From positions 348,016 through 412,015 of the forward strand of contig CANMWJ010000002.1 of assembly GCA_947501565.1 (NCBI GenBank): DNA of 64,000 nucleotides. The letters run 5' to 3'. This document shows positions 2,803-61,925 of this stretch, one piece after another. This DNA is from an uncultured Marinobacterium sp. (GTDB lineage: Bacteria; Pseudomonadota; Gammaproteobacteria; Pseudomonadales; Balneatricaceae). How positions within the stretch are numbered: position 1 is the first letter of the stretch; each line of letters opens with the position of its first letter. A program made the position numbers and the translations under genes. The notes under the pieces were generated by a model. That model ran no database searches and was not told the DNA's origin. It saw only the letters and a program-made list of their open reading frames with translations.

Positions 2803-3180
2803 GATGACTCCTTCATCAGTGCAGCCTGTCTTTGAGGCGGCATCATAATTATTTGAGCATAGAACTTAGAGGAATATAGCTCAGTTTTTGAATATCTGAT
2901 ATTCAACTCAAGTGTGGAGCTGCCGATATATAAACGCAGTGTAACTTTGAAATTTTTCCCAGCATACGTGTATTTTAAATACCAAATACGTATCGTGTAC
3001 TGCGAATTTGTGCGCCTTATTAGTAGATCCTGGCTCAGACAAACCTAAGATTTCGTCATGAGGTTATGCCTAAATGATCATTCATCAACTGGTGTACATC
3101 CTTTCATGTTCGCTCTATCCTTCTGTATATAAAGCGTTTTCCTTAATAAACGCCTACTACCGGACGCAGAGAGTTTTAGC

Positions 3181-4077
3181 GTGGATGCCCAAACGACAGA
3201 TGTAGATCGGATTCTCGCACAGGCGGGGAAGATGCCCTTCCTGCAGGGCACTATGTTCCGCTTCAGCCAGATGGATCCGCTGGCCGATAACTTCAGTCAG
3301 GAGATGCTGCGGCTTTGCAAAGCGGACCCTATGCTGGCGCTCTTTCTGTTGCGTCTGGCCAACAGTGGTCGCGGAGCCAAGAATCAACCTGTCACCACCA
3401 TCAACGACGCATTGCGTAAAGTGCGCCCTCAGCGCCTTTTCCATCTGATCGATAGTGCTTCCGTTACTCGAATCTTTAGCCCCTCCAAGCCTGAGTACAA
3501 AGGCCTGTGGCAACACTCTATTGAAACAGCGGTATTTGCCGAGTTCAGTGCACGTAAAATCGAAGGTTTTAGCGTGCCCCCTGCCCTTGCGTACAACGCC
3601 GGGTTTATACACGATATCGGCCGCTTTCTGTTCCTGGAGCATACGCCTCAAACGCTGGATGACACCGAAAAGGTGGGCTGGACAACGCCGATGGAGCTAC
3701 CCGACCTTGAAAGGATGCTTTTAGGGCTCGATCATGCCGAGCTTGGATACCGAGCAGCGGAAAAATGGGGCTTGCCGAACATCCTGCAAAGAATGTTACG
3801 TCACCATCATCACTACGGGCTTTGGTTGGATAGTAACTTCCCTAAGCTCCTGCGTGAGTTGGTGGTGATCGTGCAGTTTGCAGATTTCGTCAGTGTTCTG
3901 GTTGAGAAAGATCCCGATTGGGTAGACTGGAAACCGGCTGCGCTGCGGGAGGCGATCCAGCACCGCTGTGTACACCCAAGTTGGGAGGACGTTCACCTGC
4001 CTGTTGCGGAGATGGCAGACAAGCTGCCTGCTCTGAACCGCGTATGTCAGGAGCGCCTTGCGCTTATCGGCCTGTAA
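3181..4077 (+). CDS. HDOD-domain signal transduction protein
   Basis: Histidine/aspartate-rich HD-related output domain motifs (HDIGRFLF, LDHAELGY). The 3181 start is GTG; an alternative ATG (MPFLQG) at 3232 is possible. Confidence 0.6.
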   Translation: MDAQTTDVDRILAQAGKMPFLQGTMFRFSQMDPLADNFSQEMLRLCKADPMLALFLLRLANSGRGAKNQPVTTINDALRKVRPQRLFHLIDSASVTRIFSPSKPEYKGLWQHSIETAVFAEFSARKIEGFSVPPALAYNAGFIHDIGRFLFLEHTPQTLDDTEKVGWTTPMELPDLERMLLGLDHAELGYRAAEKWGLPNILQRMLRHHHHYGLWLDSNFPKLLRELVVIVQFADFVSVLVEKDPDWVDWKPAALREAIQHRCVHPSWEDVHLPVAEMADKLPALNRVCQERLALIGL

Positions 4078-29161: not shown

Positions 29162-30172
29162 TCACACCCAAACCCTATATACCTTCTCACCAACCCTTTC
29201 ACAGCAGATCGCCACGCCGGTGATCTGCTCAATCACCGCACGATTGGTTTCAAAATGTTGTGTCGGGGTTGTGGTTGTAAACTCCCCCTTCCCTGCCAGC
29301 AGCAACGGAATCAGTAGTTGATCCGCCAGATGTTCTTCGACCTGCGCGCCGAAGTTCAGAAAACGCTTCACGCAACCGACAGAACGTCGGGCGACCTTTT
29401 CCGCTGACAAACCGACCTTTCCTGTGGTTTCAAATACGCTTTTGTGGCTACCGTGGGGGATAAGCAACATAAAGGCATTTCCCGGCCCCGGTGTGCGCAC
29501 CATACGGACCTCTGCAAGTGCATCGTTCCAGCCAGTTCTGATTCTAGCTTCCGCCACTTCCCGCTCTGCGATGGAGCGATCCAGCCTGCTGACCAGTGCC
29601 TGCATATGACCGATGTCCGATGCTGGCTTGTTAACCGATAGCGGGTGTAAGGCTGCGGGCTGAATTTCCAGATGCCAGCAACCGCCACCCGCGGGATAGA
29701 ATCCCAAGCGTTCGGTTTCGAGTTTGTACTCAAGCCCAAACGCTGCCAGCAGCGGCAGAAAGGAGCTCTGAAGAAAGGTCAGTGAAGGCGACATCCCGTT
29801 ATGGGTGCCGCCTTCGAATGTAACCCGTGAAGGGGCCTGCGCACCCATCAGCAGTGGCAGCACGGTCTGGCAGACTAGCGTAGTGCTGCCCGCGCTGCCG
29901 ATGGCGAAGTGATAGTCCCCTGCCTGAATCGGACCGGGGTTGAACCGCAGTCGCAGGGAACCCAGCTCAAGCCCGTCCATTTGTGCGTTGGTAATCTGCT
30001 GTACCGCACGCGCAGCAGTCAGGTGCTGGCGCAACAGGCCTGGTTTGGGACGCCCGGCACGGATATTAATGATTTCTATATCGATGCCGTAGAGCGCCGC
30101 CAGCGTGAGCGAGGTGCGCAGCACCTGACCGCCGCCCTCGCCCTGCGCACCGTCGATGGTCAGAAACTCCAT
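29162..30172 (-). CDS. rtcA: RNA 3'-terminal phosphate cyclase RtcA
   Basis: MEFLTIDGAQGEGGGQVLRTSLTLAAL matches the RtcA N-terminus. AGGAAAGGAA SD. The track ORF is extended 13 codons further 5' to 30211. Confidence 0.85.
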   Translation of the reverse strand: MEFLTIDGAQGEGGGQVLRTSLTLAALYGIDIEIINIRAGRPKPGLLRQHLTAARAVQQITNAQMDGLELGSLRLRFNPGPIQAGDYHFAIGSAGSTTLVCQTVLPLLMGAQAPSRVTFEGGTHNGMSPSLTFLQSSFLPLLAAFGLEYKLETERLGFYPAGGGCWHLEIQPAALHPLSVNKPASDIGHMQALVSRLDRSIAEREVAEARIRTGWNDALAEVRMVRTPGPGNAFMLLIPHGSHKSVFETTGKVGLSAEKVARRSVGCVKRFLNFGAQVEEHLADQLLIPLLLAGKGEFTTTTPTQHFETNRAVIEQITGVAICCERVGEKVYRVWV

Positions 30173-30197
30173 AACTATTCCTTTCCTGTTCCGATCC

Positions 30198-31436
30198 CTA
30201 ACCTTTAACACAGACGATCTGCTTCAGCGTCTGTACCACTTCAACCAGGTCGCTCTGCGCGGCCATCACCTTATCGATATCCTTGTAGGCGTGCGGGATC
30301 TCGTCGATCACGCTTTCATCCTTACGGCACTCCACACCATCGGTGGCGGCGATCTGGTCGTCGATGCTGAACACCTTTTTCGCTTTGGTGCGGGACATCA
30401 CACGGCCTGCGCCGTGGCTGCAGCTGTTGAAACTCTCAGGATTACCTAACCCACGCACGATAAAGGAGCGCTCGCCCATACTGCCCGGAATGATTCCCAG
30501 CTCACCCTTCTCGGCTCGCACTGCGCCTTTACGGGTGACGTAGCAGTCCTTACCGTAGTGGTGCTCGCGCGAGATGTAGTTATGGTGGCAGTTCACCGCC
30601 ATCTGTGCGGCATCAAACGGGATACCCAACTCTTTACGTAGCGCTGCGATGGCGTTATGCATCATGATCTCGCGGTTTTTACGCGCGTAATCCTGCGCCC
30701 ACTCGACCGCTTCCACGTAATCGTCGAAGTACTTGGAGCCTTCTTTCAGGTACGCCAGATCCCTGTCCGGCAGCTGGACCTGATGGCGCTCCATCTCTTT
30801 CTTCGCCAGCTCGATAAAGTAAGTACCGATACGGTTACCGACACCACGGCTACCGGAGTGCAGCATGATCCAGACCGCATCGTGCTCATCCAGACAGAGT
30901 TCCAGAAAGTGGTTCCCGGTACCCATAGTGCCCAGATGCACCACATTGTTGGTCTGTCGGATCGCCGGATGTTTCTCGCAGATACGCTCGAAGCGTGCCT
31001 GCAGGCTCAGCCACTCCTGCGCCACCAGTTCGGGGATATCCTGCCACGCACCCTTATCGCGTTTATTGCCGCGACCGCTGGTACGGCCATGCGGGACGGC
31101 GCGCTCAAAGGCAGCGCGGATACCTGCCAGATTATCGGGTAGCTGATCGGCACGCAGACTGGTTTTGGTGGCGACCATACCGCACCCGATATCGACACCC
31201 ACAGCGGCGGGGATCACGGCCCCCACCGACGGGATCACGCTGCCGATGGTGGCGCCTTTACCCAGATGCACGTCGGGCATCACGGCGATATGACGGTGCA
31301 CCAGATCCAGTTGTGCGATGTTCTCCAGCTGCTGCTGGGCGTCGGGTTCAAAGGGCACGTCGTTGACCCAGGCTTTGATCGGCACACGTCCTTTCTCGCT
31401 GATCAGCGTATAGTTGCTTGTTCTGTGCTTACCCAT
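30198..31436 (-). CDS. rtcB: RNA-splicing ligase RtcB
   Basis: 412 aa with motifs HIAVMPDVHLGKGATIGSVIP, VGVDIGCGM and HSGSRGVGN. AAGGAAAG SD. Confidence 0.85.
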   Translation of the reverse strand: MGKHRTSNYTLISEKGRVPIKAWVNDVPFEPDAQQQLENIAQLDLVHRHIAVMPDVHLGKGATIGSVIPSVGAVIPAAVGVDIGCGMVATKTSLRADQLPDNLAGIRAAFERAVPHGRTSGRGNKRDKGAWQDIPELVAQEWLSLQARFERICEKHPAIRQTNNVVHLGTMGTGNHFLELCLDEHDAVWIMLHSGSRGVGNRIGTYFIELAKKEMERHQVQLPDRDLAYLKEGSKYFDDYVEAVEWAQDYARKNREIMMHNAIAALRKELGIPFDAAQMAVNCHHNYISREHHYGKDCYVTRKGAVRAEKGELGIIPGSMGERSFIVRGLGNPESFNSCSHGAGRVMSRTKAKKVFSIDDQIAATDGVECRKDESVIDEIPHAYKDIDKVMAAQSDLVEVVQTLKQIVCVKG

Positions 31437-31472: not shown

Positions 31473-32528
31473 TCAGGTGATTTTGACCACACCGTTCATC
31501 AGGCCCTCAAGACCGCCGTATACCGTCAGGCTATCGATCTTCTCGGCCATCTTCTCCAGCGCTTCCAGCTCTTTCAGCCGCATCAGCGTTGGGTTGTTTT
31601 CCATCACCTTGGCAGTGTTGTGCAGACTACGCGTCGCGGCGGTCTCTTCACGCCGCTTGATCACGTTGGCCTCAGCCGCTTTCTGCGCCTCTACCACCTG
31701 ATTGAGGATCGCTTTCATCTCGCCCGGCAGGATGATGTCTTTCACACCCACGCTGAGCAGATTCACGCCGACCGCACTTAGGGTGTTTTGTACCAGTTCG
31801 TGCACGGTCTCATTGATATAGAGTTTATCCAGCAGCAGGTCGTCCAATGTTTTGGTGCCGACCGCTTCACGTAACGCCAGCTGCAGGGTTTTATAGACAA
31901 ACTCCTCCACCCGATCGACCTGCCGTGCTGCCAGTTCCGGATCTTCGATACGGATCGCTGCGCTGAGGTTCAGGCGCAAGCTGACCCGGTCTTTGCTCAG
32001 GATCTCCTGGCCGCTGATCTCCAGCTGCTGCTGCCGGGTATCGAAACTCTTAAGTTCGACGTTGTGCGCGAACTGCCAGTAACCGTGCAGGCCCGCCTCC
32101 AGCTTACAGTGATAGACACCGTCCACGTAGAGCAAGCCTACGTGATCCTTGGCCACGTTAAACTCTGCGACCGGTTTGATCGCCACGGTACGTTCGCTAC
32201 GGATCAGGCGTGCCGCATGGTTGGCACCCGCACGCTGCAACTGAATTAGCAGCGCCGTATCCAGCGCCAATGAATCGTTCAGATCAACGATCTCCAGAGT
32301 GCATTTGGCCGCCTCTTTCCACAGCATCAGGGTTTCACCCGGCGCAACGACACCGCGTAACCGGCCGTTCTCGTAGAGCAAACCTGCCTGCGTCTGGGTC
32401 AGGTGCCAGTGTTGCAGATGGTCTGCCAGCAGCGGATAGCTGTGATACAAACGCTCGGCATTTTTCGGCGCAAAGAACAGCTCATCGATATCAAAGTCAG
32501 TAGGTCCAACCGGCCCGGCATACGCCAT
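31473..32528 (-). CDS. SPFH/band-7 (stomatin-prohibitin-like) domain protein, first gene of the rtcBA operon
   Basis: SPFH core (FDTRQQQLEISGQEILSKDRVSL...VKDIILPGEMKAIL...EAQKAAEANV) and a coiled-coil C-terminus. No SD precedes ATG 32528. Confidence 0.65.
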   Translation of the reverse strand: MAYAGPVGPTDFDIDELFFAPKNAERLYHSYPLLADHLQHWHLTQTQAGLLYENGRLRGVVAPGETLMLWKEAAKCTLEIVDLNDSLALDTALLIQLQRAGANHAARLIRSERTVAIKPVAEFNVAKDHVGLLYVDGVYHCKLEAGLHGYWQFAHNVELKSFDTRQQQLEISGQEILSKDRVSLRLNLSAAIRIEDPELAARQVDRVEEFVYKTLQLALREAVGTKTLDDLLLDKLYINETVHELVQNTLSAVGVNLLSVGVKDIILPGEMKAILNQVVEAQKAAEANVIKRREETAATRSLHNTAKVMENNPTLMRLKELEALEKMAEKIDSLTVYGGLEGLMNGVVKIT

Positions 32529-32817
32529 AGGTGATGGATACCCGGTGTTAATACCTGTACCAGTTTCTGGTCGCGGAACATCAGCACGCGCTGGTTCTCG
32601 GCAACTTTTATACGTTTTCTGATCATCGTTTTACATCCTTATAGGGTGTTGGTAAGGGTCGTAAACTTGGGTGCATCCTCTCCCCGTACATAGCGGGAGA
32701 CGGCATCAGCTACGGCCAGTGCCTGCGGAGCGGTTGTCTGCATCCTGCTGCAACCTTTCGTTCGGCGTGGCAGTGAGCCGCCAGCGGTCTGGACGGCTTA
32801 CCAACCTGTTGTTTTTC

Positions 32818-32889
32818 AGTTTCAAGATGGGATTTGAACCCATAACAAACGAATTAAGATTCGTCGCTCTCCCGTTGAGCTACTTGAGC
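32818..32889 (-). ncRNA. tRNA-like element A in the rtc operon leader (possible YrlA-type Y-RNA module or tRNA pseudogene)
   Basis: Canonical U8-A9, D-arm GCTC-AACGGGA-GAGC and T-arm ATGGG-TTCAAAT-CCCAT. Anticodon loop is only 6 nt and the acceptor stem has 2 terminal mismatches with no CCA. Confidence 0.4.
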
Positions 32890-32905
32890 CAGTTAACCTG
32901 GCGGG

Positions 32906-32975
32906 TGCTTGAGGTGGGATTTGAACCCACGTCCGACGGGTTTCCCCGCCTGCTCTACCCCTGAGCTACAGAAGC
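32906..32975 (-). ncRNA. tRNA-like element B in the rtc operon leader
   Basis: D-arm GCTC-AGGGGTA-GAGC and T-arm GTGGG-TTCAAAT-CCCAC. 6-nt anticodon loop (GGAAAC), imperfect acceptor stem. Confidence 0.4.
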
Positions 32976-33100
32976 GATACCTTGGTTAAAGGTAACGGCT
33001 GCCTTGATGGCAGATGTGTTTGGTATACGCAGTCGCATCGCTTAGCGCATCGGCGTGTCTCAGAAACACAACCTTCAAAACACGTAATAGGTATTACAAG

Positions 33101-33116
33101 GCGTGTGCCAACTTGA
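33101..33116 (-). promoter_or_regulatory. Candidate sigma-54 promoter for the tRNA-like/SPFH/rtcBA transcript
   Basis: Minus-strand TGGCAC-ACGCC-TTGT has a perfect -24 element and correct spacing. The -12 element is GT instead of GC. Confidence 0.3.
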
Positions 33117-33260: not shown

Positions 33261-34859
33261 ATGAAAAAGACAGTCGCAGTCAGCCTTATCGGAACCCAGC
33301 TGGATTTCGCGGGAAAACGGGGAGATCGCTGGGCGAAGTGGCGCCCCAATGTCAGCCTCTGTAGCCAGGATGATCTGGTGATCGATGAGCTGCACCTGCT
33401 GCACGACAACCACCGCGAGCGACTGGCCCATCAAGTGATGGGCGATATCAACGCGGTATCGCCGGAAACTCAGGTTGAGCTGCACGCCAATAACTTTGTT
33501 GATCCCTGGGACTTCGAGGAAGTGTATTCCAAACTCTTTGACTGGTGCCAGGCACAGGATTTTGACCCGGACCAGAACGACTATCTGTTCCATATCACCA
33601 CAGGCACCCACGTCGCCCAGATCTGCATCTACCTGCTGACGGAGAGTCGTCACTTTCCCGGTCGTCTGATCCAGACCTCCCCGGATAAACACACGGAGAA
33701 ACATGTCGGGCGCGCACAGATCATCGATCTGGACCTCTCGCGCTACGATCAGCTGGCAACCCGTTTCGACAGGGAGCACCAGCTGGGTAGCGCTTTCCTG
33801 AAAGGCGGTATCGAAACCCGCAACAGCCAGTTCAACGCAATGATCGCCCAGATCGAAAAGGTGGCGATCCGCTCTCGCGAACCGATCCTGCTAACCGGCC
33901 CTACCGGGGCGGGTAAATCTCAGTTGGCAACACGCATCTTCCAGCTGAAAAAGCAGCGCGCGATGATCAGCGGCGATCTGGTGCCGGTAAACTGCGCCAC
34001 CCTCAAAGGTGAAAACGCCATGGCGGCCCTCTTCGGTCACACCAAAGGCGCTTTTACCGGGGCGCTGCAGGCACGCGACGGTTTCCTGAAGTCCGCTCAT
34101 CAGGGTGTGCTGTTTCTGGATGAAATTGGCGAATTGGGAGTTGAGGAGCAAGCGATGCTGTTGCACGCGCTGGAGAACAAAAGTTTCTACCCGGTGGGCA
34201 GCGATAAGGCGGTATCCAGCGATTTTCAGCTGATCGCCGGTACCAACCGCGATCTGAAGCAGGAGGTGCTGGAAGGACGTTTCCGACAGGATCTGCTCTC
34301 ACGTGTCAATCTCTGGAGTTATGAGCTGCCGGGCCTCAAAGACCGCCGAGAGGATATCGCGCCCAATATCAACTACGAGCTGATCGAATACGCCAAGCGT
34401 GAAGGCACCCACGCGGAATTCAACAAGGAAGCACGGGAGCACTTCCTGCGTTTTGCACAATCCGACAACGCGCTCTGGCAAGGTAACTTCCGCGACCTCA
34501 ACGCCGCGATCACCCGCATGTCGACGCTAGCGGATTCGTCACGCATTACGGTCGAGGATGTGGAAGCAGAGATCGAACGACTGACTAACTCATGGCAGAT
34601 CGACACCCAGCAGCACAGCGTTGAGGACTGCATCGTGCGCTACCTCTCTCCTGCAGAGATAAGCCAGCTCGACCGTTTCGATCGCAGCCAGCTCAACTAC
34701 GTGTTGGGTGTGTGCGAATCCCACAACTCGCTGGCCGCCGCCGGTCGTGAACTGTTCCAGGCCTCCAGACTGGAGAAGAAACAGACCAACGACTCCACCC
34801 GCTTACAGAAGTATCTGGCGAAGTTTGGTATTTCCAGCACTCAAATTGAAAGAAGATAA
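33261..34859 (+). CDS. rtcR: Sigma-54-dependent regulator RtcR (CARF-like N-domain + AAA+ + HTH)
   Basis: 532 aa. N-terminus MKKTVAVSLIGTQLDF is typical of RtcR. Contains GPTGAGKS and GAFTGA. Divergent from rtcBA. Confidence 0.85.
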   Translation: MKKTVAVSLIGTQLDFAGKRGDRWAKWRPNVSLCSQDDLVIDELHLLHDNHRERLAHQVMGDINAVSPETQVELHANNFVDPWDFEEVYSKLFDWCQAQDFDPDQNDYLFHITTGTHVAQICIYLLTESRHFPGRLIQTSPDKHTEKHVGRAQIIDLDLSRYDQLATRFDREHQLGSAFLKGGIETRNSQFNAMIAQIEKVAIRSREPILLTGPTGAGKSQLATRIFQLKKQRAMISGDLVPVNCATLKGENAMAALFGHTKGAFTGALQARDGFLKSAHQGVLFLDEIGELGVEEQAMLLHALENKSFYPVGSDKAVSSDFQLIAGTNRDLKQEVLEGRFRQDLLSRVNLWSYELPGLKDRREDIAPNINYELIEYAKREGTHAEFNKEAREHFLRFAQSDNALWQGNFRDLNAAITRMSTLADSSRITVEDVEAEIERLTNSWQIDTQQHSVEDCIVRYLSPAEISQLDRFDRSQLNYVLGVCESHNSLAAAGRELFQASRLEKKQTNDSTRLQKYLAKFGISSTQIERR

Positions 34860-49432: not shown

Positions 49433-49540
49433 CAGATCCTCTCTCGACAAGGCAAACCCCGAGCGATCGGGGGACGCAAAGTCACGGGTCCCTAGGGAAT
49501 TAAGCAGTAAGGGATAGCCGGACCACCGAAGGAGAGCCTC
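49433..49540 (+). promoter_or_regulatory. c-di-GMP-I (GEMM) riboswitch candidate
   Basis: CCTCTCTCGACAA-GGCAAACC-CCGA(GCGA)TCGGG-GGACGCAAAG-TCACGGGTCCC...GCCGGACCACCGA-AGGAGAG. Conserved GGCAAACC, GNRA-capped P1b, ACGCAAAG junction and ACGGGYCC, with P1 closure by CTCTC/GAGAG. Lies 55 nt upstream of ORF 49596. Confidence 0.65.
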
Positions 49541-61826: not shown

Positions 61827-61925
61827 ATCCTCTCCGGATAAAGGCACAGCCTGTGAAAGCAGGTGTCGCAAAGTTACGGGTCCCATCTTTGTTGTGGGGA
61901 CGGCCGCACTGCCCATGGAGAGCAT
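61827..61925 (+). promoter_or_regulatory. Second c-di-GMP-I (GEMM)-like riboswitch candidate
   Basis: CCTCTCC-GGATAAA-GGCACAGCC-TGT(GAAA)GCAGG-TGTCGCAAAG-TTACGGGTCCC...GGAGAG shares P1, the GNRA hairpin, the CGCAAAG junction and the ACGGGTCCC block with the element at 49433. Lies 65 nt upstream of ATG 61988. Confidence 0.5.

Follow-up and report, generated by a model that had tools for sequence, protein, structure and literature searches.

In a 64,000-nucleotide (nt) stretch of the genome of an uncultured Marinobacterium sp., referred to throughout as the window, two tandem elements shaped like transfer RNAs (tRNAs), E1 and E2, stand in the leader of an operon that encodes an SPFH/Band-7 protein, the RNA ligase RtcB and the RNA 3'-phosphate cyclase RtcA, and that is divergent from the gene of the sigma-54 activator RtcR. 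We read E1 and E2 as band 7-associated tRNAs (b7a-tRNAs), leader-derived RNAs that would bind the SPFH protein as a scaffold or cofactor for RtcB/RtcA repair, and to this reading as a whole we give a probability of roughly 0.65. The role that we think likeliest for them is to serve, without decoding, as RNA partner to an SPFH protein that is soluble and vault-like and works with RtcB and RtcA. According to the accessible text of Wang et al. (2018 bioRxiv 10.1101/312249), the b7a-tRNA was predicted by Burroughs and Aravind (NAR 2016), some bacteria encode RtcB beside a Band-7 protein and a predicted noncoding RNA that is strongly tRNA-like, and the b7a-tRNA has been proposed as redundant with YrlA, that is, as its functional counterpart. 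All the features reported in that account are found in the window, where tRNA-like cloverleaves adjoin a Band-7/SPFH gene with rtcB-rtcA next in line, and nothing essential in it differs. By the same account the class is already known as a prediction and is not a new discovery. What is seen here beyond its summary includes arrays of one to three elements of distinct types, 4-nt overlaps between elements and loss of the anticodon arm, together with two flanking leader domains, a conserved sigma-54-type promoter and pairs of RNA and SPFH gene that occur without RtcB.

Two Cloverleaves That Cannot Decode

E1 and E2 are the sole tRNA-like calls made by ARAGORN in the window, both lie on the minus strand, and both score above the gathering score of 29 set for the Rfam tRNA model RF00005 (Table 1). 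Their D-arms have the common form UA-GCUC...GAGC, the T-arms of the two elements read GUGGG-UUCAAAU-CCCAC and AUGGG-UUCAAAU-CCCAU, and the minimum-free-energy fold of each is a cloverleaf (z about -2.1 for each). The anticodon arm of E1, GGCGG(G)-GAAA-(C)CCGUC, can be read with a 6-nt loop or as a 6-base-pair (bp) stem with a GNRA tetraloop cap, and that of E2, ACGAA-UCUUAA-UUCGU, can be drawn with a loop of 4, 6 or 8 nt, never 7; covariance-model alignments give both elements 6-nt anticodon loops. Each acceptor stem forms five of its seven pairs, that of E2 being effectively 5 bp long. The 3' tails are ACCC (E1) and CU (E2) and CCA is encoded in neither, while genuine tRNAs in the gammaproteobacterial locus L003 do end in an encoded CCA. 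Because their loops are not of 7 nt, their acceptor stems are paired at only five of seven positions and CCA is missing, E1 and E2 are incapable of decoding. The nearest relatives of E1 are the first-position elements of the loci L003 and L001, and E2, which shares the strand of the SPFH gene, ends 191 nt upstream of where that gene starts. The 15-nt hairpin between the two elements occupies the slot that a third (type B) element fills in relatives, and in the close relative L081 its stem is retained with an altered loop.

Conservation of the RNA-SPFH Pair

A profile scan for the SPFH protein, with one genome taken per species, returned 80 loci (L001-L080), and elements upstream of the SPFH gene were sought with ARAGORN and with an RNA model, R1, for which 43 elements were taken from other genomes and the window was left out. 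One to three same-strand tRNA-like elements were found upstream of the SPFH gene in 76 of the 80 loci, which is to say in all 76 informative ones, the remaining four having less than 310 nt of DNA upstream of SPFH and being counted as uninformative. The pairing of element and SPFH gene extends over Gammaproteobacteria, Cyanobacteria, Acidobacteria, Myxococcota and other taxa. Applied to the window, R1 gave E2 67.5 bits and E1 57.1 bits, the sole real matches in the 64 kb. Across 51 distinct element sequences pairing in the stems stands at 92% and double changes occur at 17 of 21 pairs, a result equalled in none of 500 shuffles and set against 37-50% pairing in slid controls. The anticodon loops vary from 4 to 9 nt and are free in sequence, and the "anticodon" changes between orthologous positions. 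The arm can also be missing altogether, as in the 51-nt "mini" elements of Shewanella and Celerinatantimonas loci (L026, locus positions 3580-3630; L028 and L029, 3574-3624), which consist of an acceptor stem, a D-arm and a T-arm. When the window is compared with L081, E1 is 98.6% and E2 95.9% identical, against 82.7% for the untranscribed spacer between rtcR and the promoter and 89-96.5% for coding sequences. Taken together, the comparisons show E1 and E2 to be predicted cloverleaf RNAs under purifying selection.

The architecture of rtcR and, divergent from it, the tRNA-like elements, SPFH, rtcB and rtcA is common to L001-L044; in most of the more distant loci L045-L080, the cyanobacterial and acidobacterial loci included, the element and the SPFH gene are kept together among unrelated neighbours with no RtcB within 4 kb. 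Conversely, the rtcR-rtcBA locus of E. coli, which has no SPFH gene, contains no tRNA-like element in its 188-nt intergenic region. Because the pair persists without RtcB and is absent from the SPFH-less rtc locus of E. coli, the genomic comparison shows the conserved unit to be the predicted RNA together with SPFH, the elements tracking SPFH and neither RtcR nor RtcB.

Several further arrangements were observed among these loci. In three-element arrays (L001, L002, L006, L007, L015 and others, at about 3547-3690) the second and third elements share 4 nt (AUAC), and by virtue of this overlap both cannot be excised intact. A bare minihelix of T-arm and acceptor stem precedes the main element in L031-L043. 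In the cyanobacterial loci L061-L080 the elements are mostly paired, and many have an encoded 3' CCA and 7-nt loops of Lys- or Asn-like type; the element of L062 at 3152-3226 has a body that we take to resemble tRNA-Lys(UUU). The cyanobacterial SPFH proteins are longer, at about 513-527 amino acids (aa), and start 360-420 nt downstream of the elements. Roughly 14-15 canonical-looking tRNA genes lie directly upstream of the module in a gammaproteobacterial (L050, 247-2437) and a myxobacterial (L060, 1-1534) metagenome-assembled genome.

Ordinary tRNAs, Pseudogenes and Y RNAs

Given that both elements pass the Rfam tRNA threshold, and that ARAGORN assigns ordinary anticodons in some relatives, E1 and E2 might be taken for ordinary tRNA genes, for decayed tRNA pseudogenes or for the remnants of an integration site. 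We regard such an origin as having almost no chance of being correct. Against it stand loops of other than 7 nt, mismatched acceptor stems and the lack of an encoded CCA, together with a position, strand and stem covariation that are kept across four phyla. The assigned anticodons also differ between orthologous positions, no integrase gene or att-type repeats were found nearby, and the element sequences are more strongly conserved than coding sequences.

An earlier interpretation made from the letters of the window (the sequence-only reading) had likewise held that the elements are unlike decayed tRNA genes, a view that the conservation just described upholds. Its description of two tandem elements with canonical D- and T-arms agrees with the ARAGORN calls, with Rfam tRNA scores of about 45 bits and with the arms as read directly, and the 6-nt anticodon loops, imperfect acceptor stems and missing CCA that it listed are seen in both elements. 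It went astray in likening them to the tRNA-mimicking domain of Y RNAs of the YrlA/YrlB type. On a reading of this kind, the permuted tRNA-like domain of a YrlA-type Y RNA that does without Rsr would be assembled from the E1 T-arm, the hairpin in the spacer and the E2 D-arm, and there is indeed a match to the YrlA model RF02553, running from the E1 T-arm through the spacer into the E2 D-arm (32938-32859) with a 4-bp CGUC/GACG pairing retained. This match is weak. It reaches 27.1 bits (E 5e-4 in a 241-nt search at permissive thresholds) where the gathering score is 69, and it covers only positions 23-88 of the 114 in the model. Tandem or dimeric tRNAs are known to give false-positive YrlA matches (Chen et al., 2014), and the same artefact recurs at L006. 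Moreover, in the place of a Ro-binding stem the match is flanked by the full D-arm of E1 and the full T-arm of E2, relatives that have just one element cannot adopt the permuted fold, and the operon is without rsr. The YrlA-type reading is effectively refuted.

What survives of the suggested "Rsr-less Y-RNA/Rtc variant" is the niche, which is that of Rsr and Y RNA in Salmonella; the YrlA-type RNA does not survive. The other option put forward, a new tRNA-like RNA linked to RNA repair, is overtaken by the 2016 prediction of the b7a-tRNA that Wang et al. (2018) report. The likeness to the Salmonella rsr-yrlBA-rtcBA operon lies in a tRNA-mimicking noncoding RNA within an RtcR-controlled rtcBA operon, beside the gene of a putative scaffold. 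The RNAs themselves are built differently, YrlA being circularly permuted (T-arm, closed acceptor, D-arm) and provided with a Ro-binding stem, whereas E1 and E2 are complete, unpermuted cloverleaves without such a stem; the partner proteins also differ, a TROVE-domain protein for YrlA and an SPFH protein here. In YrlA, the tRNA-like domain is cleaved by RNase P and receives CCA (Chen et al., 2014).

The Locus and Its Predicted Promoter

The operon consists of SPFH, rtcB and rtcA, with no rsr/Ro60 gene among them (TROVE domains were not scanned for elsewhere in the window), so that SPFH stands in place of Ro60/Rsr, as the sequence-only reading had said. The sigma-54-like element that it had also noticed is present, its position being 33110-33096 on the minus strand and not 33101..33116. 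The -24 part, TGGCAC, and the N5 spacing match the sigma-54 consensus; the -12 part is TTGT and not the canonical TTGC. In 43 of 44 related loci TGGCAC-N5-TTG is found again, at about 150 nt from where rtcR starts and in every case upstream of the tRNA-like elements. Because the position of the promoter upstream of the elements is conserved, we infer, on good grounds, that E1 and E2 form part of the RtcR/sigma-54 operon transcript.

Table 1. Features of the rtcR-SPFH-rtcB-rtcA locus, in positions of the window.
Feature	Position	Strand	Basis and remarks
rtcR, sigma-54 activator with RtcR/CARF N-terminal domain	33261..34859	+	Pfam RtcR 5.4e-80, Sigma54_activat 5.7e-47
Sigma-54-type promoter element TGGCAC-acgcc-TTGT	33096..33110	-	Read from sequence; upstream of both tRNA-like elements
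Conserved 5' leader domain	33011..33085	-	Alignment of 35 loci; directly after the sigma-54-type promoter, ~75 nt
Two window-specific hairpins, CUGCC-AUCAA-GGCAG and UACCUU-UAACC-AAGGUA	32976..33013	-	Sequence and full-leader fold
E1, tRNA-like element of type A	32904..32975	-	ARAGORN "tRNA-???", 2-nt anticodon; Rfam tRNA 45.8 bits
Inter-element hairpin GCCAG-GUUAA-CUGGC	32888..32902	-	Fold -9.1 kcal/mol, z -2.8
E2, tRNA-like element, type C-like	32818..32890	-	ARAGORN "tRNA-???", 4-nt anticodon; Rfam tRNA 45.2 bits
Conserved 3' leader domain	32644..32808	-	Structured RNA of ~130 nt that follows the last tRNA-like element and precedes the SPFH start codon
SPFH/Band-7 ("slipin") gene, first of the operon	31473..32626	-	Pfam Band_7 8.9e-30
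rtcB, RNA ligase	30198..31436	-	Pfam RtcB 1e-128
rtcA, RNA 3'-phosphate cyclase	29162..30211	-	Pfam RTC 3.1e-73

Elsewhere in the window two riboswitch aptamers for cyclic diguanosine monophosphate (c-di-GMP) were observed on the plus strand, at 49442-49531 (Rfam c-di-GMP-I-GGC, 61.2 bits) and at 61833-61916 (c-di-GMP-I, 53.6 bits).

A Putative Soluble, Vault-Like Partner Protein

The SPFH protein scores 104.5 bits against the SPFH family PF01145 (threshold 23.6), belongs to the large "slipin" family, in which its homologues measure 384-390 aa, and has no transmembrane segment. An AlphaFold model of the full-length homologue P0013 (predicted local distance difference test, pLDDT, 77) shows three beta repeats in its N-terminal part together with an SPFH domain and a long helix. 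In a Foldseek search the model matched the cage-forming proteins stomatin, prohibitin and HflK/C at E values of 1e-10 to 1e-14, and it also matched the major vault protein (MVP) across the repeats, at 12-14% identity. No relative of the SPFH protein was found on viral contigs.

The likeness to vaults is one of modelled fold and of genetic setting. The model, with its beta repeats, its SPFH "shoulder" and its long helix, aligns to MVP over roughly 380-460 columns, and MVP and the rtc-linked SPFH are both soluble proteins of SPFH fold that are linked, genetically or physically, to a small noncoding RNA. There are also differences. The model has three repeats where MVP has more, namely nine, the identity is low, and the cage is putative only; moreover, vault RNA bears no likeness to a tRNA and is bound by way of TEP1.

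Flanking Leader Domains

The tRNA-like elements are not the only structured parts of the leader. In the window the 5' domain is made up of a closing helix (GUGUUUUG/CAAACAC), a hairpin (GUGUUUC-UGA-GACAC) and a further helix (GAUGCGCU...GCGUAUACC); in relatives it takes the form GUCUGAUUAAU...GUGAUUC-loop-GUCAC...GGUGCGCU...GCGUAUnCC...UAAUCA, with GGUGCGCU present in nearly all of them. Over the 35 aligned loci 85% of its cells are paired, against 31-47% in slid controls, and it is conserved chiefly in sequence, covariation being modest, with a closing helix that does covary. The two hairpins that sit between this domain and E1 are missing from most relatives.

A long stem (GGUUGGUAAG.../...CUUACCAAC) closes the 3' domain, whose central hairpin bears the nearly invariant loop GCAAGCnGGAyGCUCC; the copy in the window is divergent at its centre and carries a 35-nt hairpin inserted in this genome only. 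In 35 loci pairing extends to 86.5% of its cells, and double changes are seen at 24 of 27 pairs; 500 shuffles never did as well, and slid controls reached 31-47%. A model of the domain, R2, from whose building the window was left out, matched the window once, with 34.6 bits and an E value of about 1e-6. It found the domain in gammaproteobacterial loci and in L045 only, all the rtcR-linked gammaproteobacterial loci examined being positive, and a scan of cyanobacterial, acidobacterial and myxobacterial loci returned no 3' domain. Of the 3' domain RNAalifold recovered only the central hairpin, and of the 5' domain only two short stems; the other helices of both were proposed by a scan of column pairs and by hand inspection, and then tested. 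Neither domain has a matching family in Rfam 15, and both may be new RNA motifs.

The 3' domain ends 20-45 nt before the Shine-Dalgarno sequence, which in the window is AAGGA at 32640-32636. The segment CCCUUAC on the 3' strand of its closing stem is complementary to UAAGG of the Shine-Dalgarno region (32636-32656, minus strand), a complementarity that could serve as an alternative-pairing switch. Such a pairing would suit a purely cis-acting leader, in which the cloverleaves are processing "punctuation", entry sites of RNase P or RNase E without any role as free RNAs, and in which they and the flanking domains jointly govern how stable the SPFH-rtcBA mRNA is or how it is translated. The elements do always lie in the 5' leader between two other conserved, structured domains, and adjacent elements overlap. 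We nevertheless hold this explanation to be decidedly improbable. A minihelix of acceptor and T-arm would suffice as a processing signal, but what has been kept across phyla includes the D-arms and the complete cloverleaf; a 3' CCA, which is a feature of mature free RNA, is encoded in many of the distant copies; and the cyanobacterial elements lie as far as 360-420 nt from the SPFH start. In another direction, the leader of about 470 nt might as a whole be a composite noncoding RNA, with a 5' junction domain, one to three tRNA-like modules and a 3' domain that, like Y RNAs, is closed by a long stem; with a soluble, vault-like cage of SPFH it would form a bacterial ribonucleoprotein (RNP) that cooperates with RtcB. 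We consider this more elaborate proposal unlikely.

A Model for the RNA-SPFH Module

We propose that activation of RtcR would lead to a leader of about 470 nt being transcribed together with SPFH-rtcB-rtcA, from which the tRNA-like modules would be freed by tRNA-processing enzymes, with RNase P acting at the 5' ends, 3' trimming and perhaps the addition of CCA. A comparable arrangement is that of the thrU-tyrU-glyT-thrT-tufB operon of E. coli, where RNase P and 3' processing free tRNAs that lie upstream of a coding sequence. The likeness is that of tRNA-shaped units preceding a coding sequence in a transcript that, for the operon considered here, we infer to be a single one; the difference is that the tRNAs of the thrU-tufB operon decode, with fixed anticodons and an encoded CCA, whereas E1 and E2 cannot decode. 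Once freed, the RNAs would be bound by a soluble, vault-like oligomer of the SPFH protein by way of the acceptor, the T-arm and the elbow, and not of the anticodon, as suggested by the dispensability of the anticodon arm. The resulting SPFH-RNA RNP would be a scaffold or cofactor for RNA repair by RtcB and RtcA, and a functional counterpart of Rsr-YrlA in Salmonella.

The principal rival to this proposal is that the elements mimic substrates, serving as decoys or sensors for nucleases that target tRNA, such as anticodon nucleases or colicin-type toxins. They could act as a nuclease sponge, or be cut to fragments whose ends bear a 2',3'-cyclic phosphate and that are resealed by RtcB or that feed back on the CARF domain of RtcR. 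Several points speak for the idea. Fragments of tRNA ending in a 2',3'-cyclic phosphate activate RtcR, such RNA ends are substrates of RtcB and RtcA by established enzymology, and YrlA has itself been proposed as a competitive inhibitor of a nuclease; among the loci compared here, many distant elements retain a Lys- or Asn-like anticodon in a loop of the canonical 7 nt, and an encoded CCA. Against the idea, the anticodon loop is the least conserved part of the elements, ranging over 4 to 9 nt, taking the form of a GAAA tetraloop in E1 and disappearing with its arm in L026, L028 and L029. Recognition away from the anticodon would accordingly favour the cofactor or scaffold RNP over a decoy. Furthermore, the elements are made only after RtcR is active and thus cannot be the primary sensor, the link with SPFH holds without any RNA ligase nearby, and an SOS-induced nuclease did not cleave Salmonella YrlA in the literature. 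We therefore think substrate mimicry unlikely, though the strongest of the competing accounts of what the RNAs do.

Several points weigh against the b7a-tRNA reading. R1 gives genuine tRNAs 40-65 bits, so that b7a elements are not separated from them by score, and since true tRNAs are scored too, it is position and synteny, not score, that define membership of the class. The 3' arm of the spacer hairpin overlaps the first bases of E2, and in view of this and of the overlaps of adjacent elements, clean excision of separate molecules is not assured. The SPFH gene of the window is frameshifted by a 1-nt deletion near 32495, which splits it into open reading frames of 75 and 351 aa, in an alignment where the gene of L081 is intact; this is either a real pseudogene, and with it a decaying system in this strain, or an error of assembly. 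According to the accessible portion of a 2026 study of SPFH genes in Pseudomonas aeruginosa, deletion of paFlo8, the SPFH gene embedded in its rtc locus, had no significant phenotype in standard assays; that portion notes the rtc-embedded gene and never mentions a tRNA. Finally, the b7a-tRNA is described as "not validated experimentally" in the available text of Wang et al. (2018 bioRxiv 10.1101/312249), and our literature searches on b7a-tRNA and on RtcB with SPFH and tRNA-like RNA found no experimental work later than that preprint.

Implications for Bacterial RNA Repair

Repair by RtcB and RtcA is widespread in bacteria, and two unrelated scaffolds, Ro60 and SPFH, are now each seen to be paired with a tRNA-shaped RNA beside RtcB. 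This parallel suggests that a tRNA mimic is generally needed, whether for the repair of RNA or in conflicts that involve tRNA damage, and the functional analogy to Rsr and Y RNA in Salmonella, taken as an analogy, appears apt. The Marinobacterium locus is a clean RtcR-controlled example of the pairing. To it the comparison adds an RNA-SPFH core that occurs with or without RtcB, an anticodon arm that is dispensable and two further conserved RNA domains in the leader. Both the flanking domains and the putative vault-like partner protein merit further study. Were the composite RNP real, it would stand beside the vault and Ro RNPs as their bacterial counterpart, built around another protein scaffold, and the domains that flank its tRNA-like modules would be RNA motifs not described before, with strong covariation and no Rfam family in the case of the 3' domain.

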